From the NCBI GenBank assembly GCA_052389895.1, contig JBQTHM010000006.1, forward strand, positions 2,056 through 66,055: DNA of 64,000 nucleotides, read 5' to 3'. Below are positions 9,129-16,205 of this stretch, piece by piece. How positions within the stretch are numbered: the first letter of the stretch is position 1; every line of letters starts with the position of its first letter. The notes beneath the pieces are model-generated. The model was not told where the DNA came from. It did no database searches and saw only the letters and a list, made by a program, of their open reading frames with translations. Source of the DNA: Alphaproteobacteria bacterium (lineage in GTDB: Bacteria > Pseudomonadota > Alphaproteobacteria > Micropepsales > Micropepsaceae). The translations under genes and the position numbers were made by a program.

Positions 9129-9833
9129 TCAGCCCCATGGGCCGCGGCGGCGCCCGAAGAGGGGCACGTCGGCATATTTGAAGAAAGGCGTGAGTATGAG
9201 CCCGGCAACAAAGCCCCCGACATGGGCCAGGAATGCGACGCCGGGCCGGCCCGGATCGGTCATCGCGGCGCTGACGAGCTGAATCAGGAACCAGAAGCCC
9301 ACGACGAACACCGCCGCGATTTTCATCGGGTAAAGCAGCACCCCCAGCGGCAGAATCACGGTTACACGCGCGCCGGGGTGCACCAGCACGTAAGACGCCA
9401 GCACGCCGGATATGGCGCCCGAGGCGCCGACCATGGGAATTGTCGAATCGGGATTGGCGTAGCCATGGGTGAGTGCCGCCGCCACCCCACAGAGCAGGTA
9501 GAAGATGAGAAAGCGGATATGGCCCATCACATCTTCCACATTGTTCCCGAAAATCCAGAGGTAAAGCATGTTGCCAGCCAGATGCAGCCAGCTTCCGTGC
9601 ATGAACATCGAGGTAAAGAGGGTAAGCACCGGAGCCGGCGCTTCCAGCGCCGGGTTGAGCCGCGCGTCGCCCAGAAGCAGCGCGGGCACGAAGCCGTAGG
9701 TATAGGCCGCGCGCTCGCCGCCGGCCGCCCCCTGGGAGACTTGCCAGAGGAACACCGCGATACAGAGCGCCATGATGCCCCAGGTAAGAAAGGGCACGAT
9801 GCGCGTGGGGTTGTCGTCCGAGATCGGGATCAT
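9129..9833 (-). CDS. Rhomboid family intramembrane serine protease
   Basis: Six-TM profile. Catalytic GASGAISG and downstream HVGGF. Also HGSWLHLAGNMLYLWIFG. Confidence 0.85.
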   Translation of the reverse strand: MIPISDDNPTRIVPFLTWGIMALCIAVFLWQVSQGAAGGERAAYTYGFVPALLLGDARLNPALEAPAPVLTLFTSMFMHGSWLHLAGNMLYLWIFGNNVEDVMGHIRFLIFYLLCGVAAALTHGYANPDSTIPMVGASGAISGVLASYVLVHPGARVTVILPLGVLLYPMKIAAVFVVGFWFLIQLVSAAMTDPGRPGVAFLAHVGGFVAGLILTPFFKYADVPLFGRRRGPWG

Positions 9834-10023: not shown

Positions 10024-10974
10024 ATGATCCGTTCGAAACCGCTTGCTCTCGCGCTTTCGCTTGCGCTGGCGGCGCTGCCGCTGGTGCCCGCGCCTGCCCG
10101 CGCGGACGGCGGATTCGCCGGCGGGCTGAAATGCGTGGGCCCGGTCACCTTCAACAATTCGCTCACAATCAACAAGAACGTCAGCATCAACAAGCCGGTG
10201 ACGATCGACAAATCCATCTCGATCTACAATCCGGTCACCATCAACAAGAGCATTTCCATCGACAAGTCGGTCAACATCATCAAGAACATCGACAGTTCGA
10301 AGAAGATAAGCATCAACAAGAAGATCATCATCAACAAGGGCAAGGGCGACGCGACTGCGGAAGCCTTCGCCTTCGCGCTCGCGCGTGCAAGCTCGCGTTC
10401 CAATGCCATCGTATATGGCGGCGGCTATGTGGACCAGGCCGTGTCCTATGGCGGCGGCGGCGATATAGGCGCGCTTGCCGTGGAAGAGCCCTGCATCGAG
10501 CAATGGGCGACGCTCGTGCGCGCGGTGCATGCGGTCTGCGTGGACGTGCGCGGGCGCTCGCATCCCGCCGCGCGTATGCGCCCAGAAACCTGGATCGATG
10601 CTAGTTACTCCGGCGAAGTCTATCGCTGCCTGGAAGGATCCAGCCTGCGCGTGCGCATCGGCCACGTGGTGGAAAGCGAAAAAGGCATGGCGGCCGTCTA
10701 CGAAGGCGCAGACGAACTTGCCTGCCGTCCGGGCGAGGCGCTGCGCCATTACGCCGACGGGTTGGTGAAATGCGCCACCGCCGAGCGCGTGCCCGAATGC
10801 GCCGAGCGGCGCAATCTGCGCGCCTGGGGCGCGGGCGACATCTTCTTCTCCTATCAGACCAGGGTTTGCGCGCGCAGCTACGTCGCTTCGTATCAGGCGA
10901 AAAAAATGTCTTACGGCGCCTCGCGCGAGCTCGAGCTCACCGGCATGAGCCTGAATGGCGGCGTGGGTTATTAG
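10024..10974 (+). CDS. Secreted hexad-repeat protein with Cys-containing C-terminal domain (no family recognised)
   Basis: ORF 9865..10974. Signal peptide MIRSKPLALALSLALAALPLVPAPARA|DG from ATG 10024 (alternative 10003). Eleven xIxKxV-type hexads follow, then a Gly-rich linker and a roughly 190-aa domain with seven Cys. Confidence 0.6.
   Translation: MIRSKPLALALSLALAALPLVPAPARADGGFAGGLKCVGPVTFNNSLTINKNVSINKPVTIDKSISIYNPVTINKSISIDKSVNIIKNIDSSKKISINKKIIINKGKGDATAEAFAFALARASSRSNAIVYGGGYVDQAVSYGGGGDIGALAVEEPCIEQWATLVRAVHAVCVDVRGRSHPAARMRPETWIDASYSGEVYRCLEGSSLRVRIGHVVESEKGMAAVYEGADELACRPGEALRHYADGLVKCATAERVPECAERRNLRAWGAGDIFFSYQTRVCARSYVASYQAKKMSYGASRELELTGMSLNGGVGY
10150..10347 (+). repeat. Eleven in-frame 18-bp tandem coding repeats (A-rich)
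   Basis: Encodes FNNSLT INKNVS INKPVT IDKSIS IYNPVT INKSIS IDKSVN IIKNID SSKKIS INKKII INKGKG. The DNA unit is roughly ATCAACAAGNNNGTCAGC and is visibly more A/T-rich than its flanks. Confidence 0.9.
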
Positions 10975-12557: not shown

Positions 12558-12772
12558 AAACAACCTCCGGCCAATATCGCAATAAAAACAAGGCACTAAC
12601 CCCATACAAGAACCGCGGCGGTGCGCCTTTGGGCAACCGCAACGCGCTCAAGCACGGCCGCTATCGCAAGGAAATGCGCGCGCTGGGCGCGATGGCCCGC
12701 GAGCGCATTCAGGCGGCGCGGGCTGCCATAGCTGCGGCGGAATCCCTGCTCGGGCGTGCGCCCCCCAACTAG
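12554..12772 (+). CDS. Small basic hypothetical protein with GAPLGNRNALKHG motif
   Basis: 72-aa ORF whose start overlaps the previous stop. I recall the G-A-P-x-G-N-x-N-A-x-K-H-G motif from small orphan or phage-associated proteins but cannot name a family. Confidence 0.35.
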   Translation: MKTTSGQYRNKNKALTPYKNRGGAPLGNRNALKHGRYRKEMRALGAMARERIQAARAAIAAAESLLGRAPPN

Positions 12773-13107
12773 AAGTGCGCCGAGGGGTGATGGTGGGGCC
12801 AGCCGTTGCAATGTGCGATTTCATGGCGAAGCAGCAAGGCGGCTTCTTCTTCGCCAACTTCCGCCACTTCAGGCAAAACGATGAGGCACGTGTTGGGTCC
12901 GCGGAACGCGCACGCTTCGGCCCGGTGGCCGTCGTAGGGCCGCACGCCGCATCTCTTGGAAACCGTCCAGTAGGGCAAAGTGACTACGCGCAAAAGGCCT
13001 GGGTAGGGCCGGTCGTAGTTGCTGGGAGGAAGAAAAGTCGAAGCGCCGGCGGGCGTGCCGAAAGCGACGGCGAGCAACAGCAATGTGCGTTTTACTGCGG
13101 CGTTCAT
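12769..13107 (-). CDS. Small secreted protein with HExxH motif (mini metallopeptidase-like)
   Basis: Signal peptide MNAAVKRTLLLLAVAFGTPAGA|S. C-terminal LLRHEIAHCNGWPHHHP contains HEIAH plus additional His and Cys. Confidence 0.5.
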   Translation of the reverse strand: MNAAVKRTLLLLAVAFGTPAGASTFLPPSNYDRPYPGLLRVVTLPYWTVSKRCGVRPYDGHRAEACAFRGPNTCLIVLPEVAEVGEEEAALLLRHEIAHCNGWPHHHPSAHF

Positions 13108-13238: not shown

Positions 13239-13916
13239 TCAGGGCCCCGAGTCGCAATGGATGATCTGTGCCGTATTGCCGGCGGCGACCGAAGAACCCG
13301 AAACGTCGCCCCCCACATTGCCGACGGCGGCGTTCACGATCGAGGAAACGCCGCTGCTGTTTTCCTGGAAGTTGTCGGCTGTGAAGTTCGCGGCGTTCGA
13401 AACGATCTGGATCTGGTTGGCAATCGCCGTCGCGGCGAGCGAAACATCGTCGCCCACGTTAAACACCTGGGCGTTCAGCTGCGCCGACGGATCGGCGGCC
13501 CCGCAAATCTGTTCGCTTTCCACCGTCATCTTGGCGGGATCGCTGAAGATGCCTGCCGCGTTGCAGACGGCCGTGACTGAAAGCGACACGTCCTTTCCCA
13601 CGTTGAAGACCGTTGCGTTCAGCTTGGCCCCCACGTCGCCCATATTCACCTGGCTGTTCTTCACCTTGCTGTCCGTCATGGTGAAGATTTCGACCATGTT
13701 GCTGACGGCGGCGACTGTTTCCGTCACGTCGCCGCCGACATGGGCCACGTCGAAATTCATCTGCGACCAGATCGTTCCCAGATTGACCTGGCCGTTGATG
13801 ATTTCGGCACCCGTGCTGTTGCCCTTGCCCTTACTCGAGTCCGAGGCGTAGGCCGGGATCGCTTGCGCGCATATCAGCGCTGTACCCGCGATAAGGATCG
13901 TTACGAGTTTGTGCAT
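13239..13916 (-). CDS. hfaD: HfaD-like secreted repeat protein (holdfast anchor component candidate)
   Basis: ATG 13916 gives signal peptide MHKLVTILIAGTALICAQAIPAYA|SD. Four imperfect repeats of about 27 aa: NFDVAHVGGDVTETVAAVSN, NATVFNVGKDVSLSVTAVCN, NAQVFNVGDDVSLAATAIAN, NAAVGNVGGDVSGSSVAAGN. Lies third in an hfaA-hfaB-like operon. Confidence 0.5.
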   Translation of the reverse strand: MHKLVTILIAGTALICAQAIPAYASDSSKGKGNSTGAEIINGQVNLGTIWSQMNFDVAHVGGDVTETVAAVSNMVEIFTMTDSKVKNSQVNMGDVGAKLNATVFNVGKDVSLSVTAVCNAAGIFSDPAKMTVESEQICGAADPSAQLNAQVFNVGDDVSLAATAIANQIQIVSNAANFTADNFQENSSGVSSIVNAAVGNVGGDVSGSSVAAGNTAQIIHCDSGP

Positions 13917-14862
13917 GTCCGTTCTCCTCCTCAATTTGTTTTCCTGGCGCGCCGGTCTCGTTCGCCGCCACGCGCGCTTCCGCGAGCGGGGGCGGACTGT
14001 TGCTGTCGGCCAGCGGATCCGCGCCCCCGCGGCACGCTTCCGGGCCTGTGCGATAAAGACGGGACATGATTTCCAGCACCGCGCGCTCGACCACCGCGCG
14101 AACCGCAAGCTGGACTGGTTCGAGCGCGGATTCGCCGACACCGATATCGATGATGTGCTGGCCGAGAATTGCGAATACGCCGGCCTGAAGCTGGCGGCCG
14201 ACGATCTGCTTCTGGTAAGAGATAACGTCCACGACCTCGAGCGTGCGCGTGTCCACCAGCCTGAGATCGAGGCCGACGTTCATTACATAGGTCTTCGCGT
14301 CGGCGTTCGCCGCCGCGTCGGCCTGCCTGCCGGACCAGAATGCGGAGTTGCCGGTCGAGCGGATGTTGTAATTGAGCTCGGTTATGCCGCCGACCAGGTA
14401 GAACTCGGATCCTGCAATGGAGCCCGCGAAAATCTTGCGATAGCCGTCTTCTGGCCGCGCATCTCCGATGAGCTTGTTGTTGGCGTATTTCAGTTCGAGT
14501 TCGGCGACCGAAGTATCGTAACGCTCGACCAGGCTCACGCCGGCCTTGGCCAGCGCAGAAATGGCCATCAGGGCGGCGCCCTGCGTAATCTTGCGCCCAC
14601 CCCCGTCGGCCTCGAATTTGGCGGTGTAGTCGGCGATCTGGCCCACTGCGATTCTGGGCGCGGGGCGTCCGCGATTGTACGCACCAAGACACTGCAACGC
14701 GTGCGAATAGGGCGTTTCGTTGGAGATCACCGGCGCGTCGCCAATGGGCGTCGCATAGCGGCCGTCATAGCCTGCGGACGTGCTGATGCACCCGCCGAGG
14801 GCGAGCGCCATCAGCGTGAGCGCCAACGGCTTGGCAAAGTGATTGCGGGCGCGGCGCGTCAT
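13831..14862 (-). CDS. hfaB: CsgG-family outer-membrane lipoprotein, HfaB-like
   Basis: Lipobox LALGGC|IS. CsgG-like core: RIAVGQIADYTAKF...ITQGAALMAISALAKAGVSLVERYD. ATG 14862 has a GAGGA box 9 nt upstream (alternative 14871). Confidence 0.8.
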   Translation of the reverse strand: MTRRARNHFAKPLALTLMALALGGCISTSAGYDGRYATPIGDAPVISNETPYSHALQCLGAYNRGRPAPRIAVGQIADYTAKFEADGGGRKITQGAALMAISALAKAGVSLVERYDTSVAELELKYANNKLIGDARPEDGYRKIFAGSIAGSEFYLVGGITELNYNIRSTGNSAFWSGRQADAAANADAKTYVMNVGLDLRLVDTRTLEVVDVISYQKQIVGRQLQAGVFAILGQHIIDIGVGESALEPVQLAVRAVVERAVLEIMSRLYRTGPEACRGGADPLADSNSPPPLAEARVAANETGAPGKQIEEENGHAQTRNDPYRGYSADMRASDPGLRLGLE

Positions 14863-14874
14863 GCAGATCATTCC

Positions 14875-15285
14875 TCAGAAATCGATGTCGCCGTTGAGCG
14901 TGGCGGTCTGGTCGCCCTTGTTCACCTGCTTGGAATCGACGATGACCGTGTTCCAGGAGCCGTTGACGACCACATTGAGGGCATTGCCGATGGCGGTTGC
15001 CGACGCCGTGCCGCCCGGGCCCGCGAATCCCACTCCGCTGCGGTGCACGCCTTCGGCGGCGCTGTGGGTCGCGCCCGTCATCACGCCGTTCACGAAAACC
15101 TTGTTGCCGTTCTCGTCGCGGGTGGAACCGGAAATCGGCGCGTTTTCCTCGCCAGGCGCCATGCCGATTCCGGTGTTGTAGGTAGCGGCGTCGTCATAAC
15201 CGCCGCCTGCCCGTGCAGGCGCCCCCAGCGCCGCCCAGGCCAATGCCGCGACAAACCCCATCAGAACCCATTCTTTCAGGCGCAT
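14875..15285 (-). CDS. hfaA: HfaA-like secreted curlin-related protein
   Basis: Signal peptide MRLKEWVLMGFVAALAWAALGAPARA. C-terminal ATAIGNALNVVVNGSWNTVIVDSKQVNKGDQTATLNG matches my recollection of HfaA/curlin-type repeats. Alternative start 15324. Confidence 0.6.
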   Translation of the reverse strand: MRLKEWVLMGFVAALAWAALGAPARAGGGYDDAATYNTGIGMAPGEENAPISGSTRDENGNKVFVNGVMTGATHSAAEGVHRSGVGFAGPGGTASATAIGNALNVVVNGSWNTVIVDSKQVNKGDQTATLNGDIDF

Positions 15286-15488
15286 CGCACCCGCCGCAGA
15301 TTCGTTGCGGAGCTCACGGAGCAACCGTCATGCCAAAGGCAAACGGGAATTAACCCAGGCTTGTGTGCCGCAGCGGCACAACTGCGCTCGCGGGCGCACC
15401 AAAACGGCTCCAAACGTAGTGCTCGTGCGGGCCGGAACGCCGCGCTAAAGTGGCGCGAGGCGGGCGTAAATTTCGGGAACTTCAGCTA

Positions 15489-16205
15489 ATGGCCTTTTTT
15501 CAGGATTCCCGTCCGGCCCGCGAGCCCTTTCTGAACGCACCGGCCAGCGTGCTCTGGCTTATCGGCGCCCTGCTGGCGTTGCATGCGGCGCGCGCGTTTC
15601 TGCCCGAAAACTTGGCTAACGAAATCCTAATCAACTATGCCTTCGTGCCGGCGCGCTATTCGGGCGCGGCAGCGAGTGTGCCGGCGGCGAGCCTGTTCGA
15701 CCAGGCGGTAACGGCGGTGAGCTACATCTTCCTGCATGCCAATTTCACGCATGTGATCATCAATACGTTGTGGCTGCTTGCCTTCGGGCCGGCGGTCGCG
15801 CGCCGGCTGGGCGCCGGGCTGTTCATTCTGTTCTTTCTTGTCTGCGGGATCGCCGCGGCCAGCGTGCACCTTGCCCTCAATTGGGAGTCGCCAGTGCCGG
15901 TCGTGGGCGCTTCCGGTTCGGTGGCAGGGTTAATGGCGGCGGGCATCCGCATCATGTATCGCGAGCGCACGCTCCAGTTCGGCGAACGGCCGCGAATCGC
16001 CCCGATTCTCGCCCCGCCGGTCCTTTTCTTTTCGGCCATCTGGGTTGTGGTGAACATCATCGCGGGAATCACCGGACTCGGTCTGACGGACAACATGGCG
16101 ATTGTCGCCTGGGAGGCGCATTTGGGCGGGTATTTCACGGGGCTCTTCCTTCTCGGACCGCTCGACCGCCTGCGCGCACGGCGCATCGGCGCCGCTGCGG
16201 CTTGA
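15489..16205 (+). CDS. Rhomboid family intramembrane serine protease (second paralog)
   Basis: ATG 15489. Catalytic GASGSVAG and downstream HLGGYFTG. Multi-TM profile. Confidence 0.8.
   Translation: MAFFQDSRPAREPFLNAPASVLWLIGALLALHAARAFLPENLANEILINYAFVPARYSGAAASVPAASLFDQAVTAVSYIFLHANFTHVIINTLWLLAFGPAVARRLGAGLFILFFLVCGIAAASVHLALNWESPVPVVGASGSVAGLMAAGIRIMYRERTLQFGERPRIAPILAPPVLFFSAIWVVVNIIAGITGLGLTDNMAIVAWEAHLGGYFTGLFLLGPLDRLRARRIGAAAA

Follow-up and report, generated by a model that had tools for sequence, protein, structure and literature searches.

The holdfast is the strongest biological adhesive system known, and its anchor, with which stalked bacteria fasten their polar glue to the cell, has so far been treated as specific to Caulobacterales. 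Here we analyzed a stretch of 64,000 nucleotides (nt) (the window; C6:2056-66055 of a source genome of 2.09 Mb that is 99.9% complete) and describe within it a locus of three genes that, judging from their sequences, is a genuine hfaA-hfaB-hfaD holdfast anchor operon with a half-length subfamily of HfaD. The roles assigned to the Hfa proteins below are taken from two published studies (10.1101/2022.07.20.500906; PMC6707917). By these roles, HfaA, HfaD and HfaE depend on HfaB to be stable and to be displayed at the surface, and HfaA forms HfaD-dependent multimers at the holdfast that resist heat and sodium dodecyl sulfate (SDS) (10.1101/2022.07.20.500906; PMC6707917). HfaA and HfaE have been stated in a 2022 preprint to occur only in Caulobacterales (10.1101/2022.07.20.500906). 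An earlier note on this DNA (hereafter the original prediction) had judged the window to be Hyphomicrobiales-like, which was not borne out, as the organism belongs to the family Micropepsaceae, order Micropepsales. The Hfa anchor operon is a known kind of system; Micropepsaceae is a lineage in which none had been described before, and our literature search found no paper linking holdfast genes to this family.

We found three co-directional open reading frames (ORFs) at 13239..15324 on the minus strand of the window, all of them where the original prediction had placed an operon resembling hfaA-hfaB-hfaD:

14875..15285, minus strand: hfaA, a 136-aa secreted holdfast anchor protein (NF037934 match; the listed ORF is 14875..15324)
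13831..14871, minus strand: hfaB, a 346-aa CsgG-family outer-membrane lipoprotein (NF037935 and Pfam CsgG matches; lipobox LALGGC)
13239..13916, minus strand: hfaD-like gene for a 225-aa secreted four-repeat protein (NF037936 match, repeats and synteny)

Scores were read against the cut-offs of the NCBIfam equivalog models, which are 50 bits for HfaA (NF037934), 300 for HfaB (NF037935), 100 for HfaD (NF037936) and 505 for CsgG (NF011731). HfaA scored 85.8 bits (E-value 2.6e-24, model positions 10-115 of 115) and HfaB 375.5 bits (E-value 1.2e-112; 376.6 bits in the genome scan), so that both lie above their equivalog cut-offs, and the third gene, in the HfaD position, matched the HfaD model with 37.6 bits (E-value 1.5e-9) over positions 2-182 of 374. 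Because these profile hidden Markov model E-values are so low, chance is excluded. Together with the 63.4 bits of HfaB against Pfam CsgG, these searches, which the original prediction had proposed, bear out its reading of the locus as an operon of the hfaA-hfaB-hfaD type. The order of the genes is also that predicted from Caulobacter and is shared with L090, a lineage whose proteins reach the highest scores with models derived from Caulobacter.

HfaB is the CsgG-family lipoprotein that had been foreseen: the lipobox LALGGC, which is followed by no Asp at position +2, and the CsgG-like strings quoted for it are all present. It does not group with canonical csgG, the outcome that had been named as counting against an Hfa assignment, since its 375.5 bits on the HfaB model stand against 31.6 bits on the curli CsgG equivalog, whose cut-off of 505 was not reached. 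CsgG chains were its only solved relatives in the PDB (E-value 1e-6), and a profile scan found hfaB to be the sole HfaB/CsgG-like gene of the genome. Beyond the end of the HfaB model the window protein carries a C-terminal tail, DPYRGYS...GLRLGLE; a tail motif, DPYxWYS...GLRG, is kept across loci, including those without an overlap between hfaB and hfaD. In one genome of the same genus (G002, C1:927561-928323) the HfaB match falls into two pieces in different frames (model positions 2-174 and 169-263), so that hfaB there has a frameshift or was misassembled. Another clade of HfaB/CsgG-like proteins, scoring about 160 bits on the HfaB model and hence below its cut-off, was seen in G013, G017, G021, G007 and G032, in genera that mostly lack a true HfaB; this clade may represent a distinct CsgG-like secretion system.

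The hfaA gene ends 3 nt ahead of the hfaB start, and hfaA homologues precede hfaB in nearly all of 80 related loci. Since the promoter element described below includes the listed TTG 15324, the gene most likely starts at ATG 15285. The predicted Sec signal peptide, MRLKEWVLMGFVAALAWAALGAPARA, ends in ARA and is followed by GG. HfaA had been described as a small secreted protein ending in ATAIGNALNVVVNGSWNTVIVDSKQVN; this string is indeed present near the C-terminus, with 14 further residues after it.

For the third gene we placed the start at ATG 13916 and not at the upstream GTG, which shortens the listed ORF from 300 to 225 aa and leaves the predicted Sec signal peptide MHKLVTILIAGTALICAQAIPAYA, followed by S. 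The genome has no other HfaD-like gene. The original prediction of four repeats of about 27 aa was right in their number, and some 27 aa form the conserved core of each; the period itself is about 47 aa (44-48), as defined by internal repeat alignment:

13659-13796, minus strand: HfaD-like repeat 1, residues 41-86
13518-13658, minus strand: HfaD-like repeat 2, residues 87-133
13374-13517, minus strand: HfaD-like repeat 3, residues 134-181
13242-13373, minus strand: HfaD-like repeat 4, residues 182-225

Pairwise identity between repeats is 24-49%, with alignment z-scores of 4.3-11.2 relative to shuffled sequences. Among 68 homologues, N41, Q43, N73, Q89, N119, Q136, N167, Q184 and N214 are invariant, a ladder in which one Asn and one Gln are fixed in each repeat. 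An AlphaFold 2 (AF2) model with a mean predicted local distance difference test (pLDDT) value of 84.4, rising above 90 in the mature part, shows three strands in each repeat, 12 in all, and indicates with confidence that the protein would fold as a four-rung beta-solenoid. Searching the PDB with this model by Foldseek returned no significant neighbour. The top match was the FapC amyloid (9u4u; E-value 1.1e-3, TM-score 0.17-0.22, 8% identity, not significant) and a CsgA fibril came tenth; as both are only weak neighbours, we claim no amyloid homology for the HfaD-like protein.

Canonical HfaD proteins have about 374-414 aa and eight repeats of about 47 aa, against 225 aa and four repeats here. 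The L090 protein is an example, with 414 aa, 361 bits and an A-x-G-N motif at intervals of 46-50 residues that gives eight repeats. A profile built from the 68 short homologues retrieved only 364 cluster representatives among 1.84 billion proteins. Because the lengths of these representatives fall into several clusters, at about 215-235, 315 and 410-440 aa with a maximum of 1089 aa, repeat number varies across the family. Relatives within the subfamily that have the length of eight repeats also stay under the HfaD cut-off, at 41-55 bits. In public databases the homologues P0001-P0031 are named "hypothetical protein" and carry Pfam PF27277. The window protein can be regarded as a natural minimal, four-repeat form that would be useful for structural work.

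The end of hfaB and the beginning of hfaD overlap out of frame, and the ribosome-binding site of hfaD lies within hfaB codons:

13831..13916, minus strand: overlap of 86 nt between the 3' end of hfaB and the 5' end of hfaD
13924..13932, minus strand: Shine-Dalgarno sequence GAGGAGGAG of hfaD, 7 nt before ATG 13916

Read in one frame these 86 nt encode the tail motif of HfaB, and in another the signal peptide of HfaD. An overlap of 77-104 nt was found in 59 of 75 non-redundant loci, exactly 86 nt long in 37 of the 59, and it measures 74 nt in L090. A Shine-Dalgarno sequence of the GGAG type precedes the hfaD start in all but one of the 75 loci (74/75). We infer that translation of hfaD is probably coupled to that of hfaB through this overlap.

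Upstream of hfaA we identified an element of the sigma-54 type and, farther upstream, a palindrome:

15335..15320, minus strand: -24/-12 element TGGCATGACGGTTGCT, located 35 nt ahead of the ATG of hfaA
15364..15380, no strand: perfect palindrome, TGTGCCGC-N-GCGGCACA, which the -24 element follows at a distance of 29-45 nt

We took TGGCAC-N5-TTGCW as the sigma-54 consensus, with the invariant GG and GC spaced 10 nt apart. An element of this kind precedes hfaA in 92 of 93 loci, distant families included, against a background of 0.037 per 290 nt, and in an anchored logo of the hfaA upstream regions TGGCA...TTGC is invariant. Genome-wide, 35 matches with at most one mismatch were found, very few of which are both intergenic and correctly oriented. 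The genome has one RpoN (RpoN-box protein at C21:38999-40444) and apparently a single sigma-54 activator (C47:44240-45775), a response regulator with an N-terminal receiver domain and a GSFTGA motif of the GAFTGA type, to which NCBIfam assigns no named equivalog. The palindrome is a candidate activator site, and a GGCAC-like block is partly conserved in relatives at the same distance. A report from the 1990s is said to have described a sigma-54-like sequence upstream of Caulobacter hfaA. Sigma-54 elements sought upstream of hfaE and of the polysaccharide clusters were not found, a scan for sigma-70 promoters and terminators found none, and an Rfam search of 9-19 kb of the window gave no match. 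A CtrA box upstream of hfaA was considered and rejected, as only TTAA-N6-TTAAG was seen, one base short of TTAA-N7-TTAAC. About 40% of 79 loci have that sequence, at 4-18 nt upstream of their sigma-54 element, and its copy in the window (about 15339-15353, minus strand) is degenerate, GTTAATTCCCGTTTG.

We analyzed how widely the locus is distributed. Micropepsaceae are abundant in soil, peat and groundwater and have few cultured members, among them Rhizomicrobium palustre and R. electricum, whose type strains are stalked. Among named public genomes, the nearest HfaB loci come from metagenome-assembled genomes labelled Rhizomicrobium, Micropepsaceae or Micropepsales. HfaB scored above its cut-off in 16 of 25 sampled genomes of the family. 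Translated searches (tblastn) recovered the order hfaA-hfaB-hfaD in about 75 of the 80 related loci, and the same order occurs in five further families, one of them that of L090; across the class, the HfaA model matched in 12 of 401 genomes, from about five families. The L090 lineage has the sigma-54-like element and a divergent rhomboid gene in addition to its hfaB/hfaD overlap. The loci from Micropepsaceae and from the other families extend the known range of HfaA, and probably that of HfaE, beyond Caulobacterales.

Flanking the operon are an hfaE-like gene, two rhomboid genes and a small gene of another kind:

10024..10974, plus strand: hfaE-like gene for a 316-aa secreted Cys-containing protein, convergent with the operon (motif alignment; no curated model)
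15489..16205, plus strand: rhomboid-family gene divergent from hfaA, with its start revised to ATG 15489 (MAFFQD...; Pfam Rhomboid, 87 bits)
9129..9833, minus strand: second rhomboid paralog, divergent from the hfaE-like gene, at the left border of the hfa block
12769-13107, strand not stated: ORF for a 112-aa secreted HExxH protein downstream of hfaD

HfaE has been described as a Cys-rich secreted protein with the C-terminal motifs PHPASQV, CNERSLLR and DGGVG (10.1101/2022.07.20.500906). In the window protein these motifs are degenerate (SHPAARM, CAERRNLR and NGGVG) and four Cys columns are invariant. It is 23-31% identical to six proteins from distant families, three of which (L090-L092) have the exact motifs. 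HfaE-like matches were obtained in 13 genomes, each of which also carries an HfaB that is either complete or split; the 24 genomes lacking HfaB gave no match. The hfaE-like gene lies 2.3 kb from the operon here and 2-5 kb from hfaB in six families.

The rhomboid gene divergent from hfaA is its neighbour, frequently with DUF4389 as well, in 75 of the 80 loci and also in five other families. A role for rhomboid as an obligate partner of hfa was ruled out, since the ortholog is kept in relatives without hfa. Five genomes of the family that lack hfa (L100-L104) have the two rhomboid paralogs 0.6-1 kb apart, resembling an "empty site". In G008 and G018 the hfa block is split, with rhomboid 1 staying with hfaE and rhomboid 2 with hfaA. 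We read the hfa block as occupying a conserved slot between two rhomboid genes and as having been lost repeatedly. The HExxH protein has no Pfam or NCBIfam match and no homologue beside hfaD in about 100 related loci, for which reasons we do not count it as a component of the system; it is probably specific to its lineage and outside the operon.

Searching the rest of the genome for genes of the hfs/upp type, as the original prediction had advised, uncovered a Wzx/Wzy cluster with the enzyme classes of hfs. The cluster (C8:87209-98978, L106) encodes, by Pfam, a deacetylase, a small priming phosphotransferase (PHPT), a WecG-type glycosyltransferase (GT), a flippase-like protein, two GT2 proteins, a Wzy-type polymerase, a GH10 protein and a co-polymerase (PCP). 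These match the enzyme classes listed for Caulobacter hfs (10.1101/446781). A pathway of the hfs type would have an HfsJ-like WecG-type GT and an HfsH-like deacetylase, and with the Wza-type gene described below all of its enzyme classes are represented in the genome. One of the genes was followed across relatives:

C8:88981-89895, strand not stated: WecG-type transferase (Pfam)

A high-scoring WecG transferase occurs in 12 of the 17 HfaB-bearing genomes of the family and in 0 of the 8 that lack HfaB. The phylogenetic profile of the deacetylase was set aside as uninformative, the family being too widespread. Deacetylase and WecG transferase genes are neighbours in G001, G002 and G018 as well. 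The genome has one Wza-type gene (C8:51686-52279), which is clustered with genes for a Wzc-like kinase, a BBP2_2 porin and a priming transferase. Beside this Wza/Wzc cluster (C8:57350-59753; L089 15351-17754), a glycosyltransferase-like gene looks split by a transposase of the IS3 type with rve domains; read by eye, an N-terminal piece of 116 aa and a C-terminal piece of 195 aa flank the transposase gene.

As a whole, the locus is best explained as an orthologous Hfa operon that encodes an HfaB-dependent surface anchor with a polysaccharide partner and is regulated through RpoN, a reading to which we give a probability of roughly three in four. By analogy with Caulobacter, HfaB would be the outer-membrane channel that conveys HfaA and HfaD onto the surface of the cell, the HfaE-like protein would probably be exported through HfaB as well, and HfaA and HfaD would form multimers, resistant to heat and SDS, by which a polar adhesive polysaccharide is tethered to the envelope. 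This polysaccharide would likely be made by the Wzx/Wzy cluster at 87.2-99.0 kb of C8 and exported via the single Wza-type protein at 51.7 kb, and RpoN, together with the one activator of the GAFTGA type, would be needed for expression.

Several results weigh against this explanation. The HfaD-like protein, at half the canonical length, scores below the curated HfaD cut-off (37.6 vs. 100 bits). Aligning the short-HfaD profile with one canonical HfaD by hhalign gave a weak match (47% probability); the link to HfaD rests on the NCBIfam match, synteny and repeat architecture. The AF2 monomer model of HfaA, built from 83 homologues, was of low confidence (pLDDT 62) and unusable. As for the polysaccharide, the C8 cluster is likened to hfs by enzyme classes only, and the presence of a Wza-type exporter did not correlate with HfaB across 40 relatives, so that the Wza profile cannot be used to tie the Wza cluster to the anchor. 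Some relatives with HfaB have no match to the WecG transferase (G007, G020, G022 and G024), no detectable deacetylase (G004, G009, G011, G020 and G024) or no similar Wza (G009, G020 and G024). As several HfaB-bearing relatives thus show no match, either the anchor can exist without a polysaccharide set of the C8 type or detection failed.

HfaA and the HfaD-like protein, exported by HfaB, might instead polymerise into a curli-like adhesin that is independent of any polysaccharide and is itself the functional product. The independence of the Wza distribution from HfaB would fit such a fibre, as would G020 and G024, which have HfaB but no WecG transferase, deacetylase or similar Wza, and the confidently modelled beta-solenoid with its Asn/Gln ladder, whose best, although non-significant, structural neighbours are functional amyloids. 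However, the search behind these absences was a loose first look, and they may be false negatives; the genome has a complete hfs-like Wzx/Wzy set together with Wza, and within the family there is a correlation between the WecG transferase and HfaB. Moreover, in the one studied system the Hfa proteins are anchors and not the adhesive (10.1101/2022.07.20.500906). We consider a self-sufficient fibre unlikely here, although across the family the system may have a role independent of polysaccharide.

That the operon is a decaying, functionless remnant in a reduced 2.09-Mb genome seems very improbable to us, even though this is the smallest complete genome of its family, hfaB is apparently split in G002 of the same genus, and the glycosyltransferase of the Wza cluster looks interrupted by an insertion sequence. 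The three ORFs are intact, with signal peptides, lipobox and internal Shine-Dalgarno sequence, the promoter element is preserved and the scores are the same as in relatives; that the operon was kept in a streamlined genome also argues for use. Hardly any probability at all is left for a canonical curli CsgG/CsgA system misread as Hfa. The Pfam CsgG domain and the CsgG chains, which are the only solved relatives, are what such a misreading could appeal to, but the scores already refute it (31.6 bits on the CsgG equivalog, with a cut-off of 505, vs. 375.5 on HfaB), and the flanking proteins are matched by the models for HfaA and HfaD but by no curlin family of Pfam.

With an Hfa anchor as the preferred explanation, an intact anchor operon together with an HfaE-like gene and an hfs-like cluster, across Micropepsaceae and in several further families, leads us to expect that more organisms than now recognized may attach by a polar adhesin. 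The conserved promoter and the gene overlap offer testable handles on the regulation and the balance of anchor production, and these two features, with the rhomboid-flanked slot, are the parts worth following up. A bolder proposal, which we put forward tentatively and to which we give somewhat less than even odds, is that the anchor is an ancestral module of a clade far broader than Caulobacterales, with at least six alphaproteobacterial families, in which the sigma-54 promoter, the coupling overlap of about 86 nt with its conserved HfaB tail and the rhomboid/DUF4389 slot have been fixed by selection, with hfa as a principal target of the sole activator in the genome studied here. If this were true, anchor production would be a switchable developmental decision in a streamlined genome.

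Among known systems, the likeness to Pseudomonas FapC (PDB 9u4u) is one of fold class only, as both are beta-solenoids of imperfect repeats; the Foldseek match is non-significant and the export machinery (FapF) is unrelated. Curli, the type VIII secretion system, shares these features with the locus: small secreted subunits are exported by an outer-membrane lipoprotein of the CsgG fold, and subunit repeats with conserved Asn and Gln are stacked as beta-solenoids. However, HfaB is distant from CsgG (31.6 bits), the repeat described here has 47 aa and three strands whereas that of CsgA has about 22 aa and two, and the product here would anchor a polysaccharide instead of forming a matrix fibre. 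HfaA and the HfaD-like protein also have no curlin-repeat match in Pfam, and no genome search for csgA/B/E/F was made. The Hfa systems of Caulobacter crescentus and Hirschia baltica differ from this locus in that the host here belongs to Micropepsaceae and not to Caulobacterales, in the N-terminal half of HfaE, which is a hexad-repeat array, and in HfaD, whose 4 repeats (225 aa) and score under the curated cut-off here compare with 8 repeats (about 414 aa) there. They resemble it in the A-B-D gene order, in HfaA and HfaB proteins that pass the equivalog models, in an HfaB that is a CsgG-like lipoprotein and in an HfaD built of repeats of about 47 aa, and H. baltica has in addition an hfaE-like gene near the operon (10.1101/2022.07.20.500906), as does the window.

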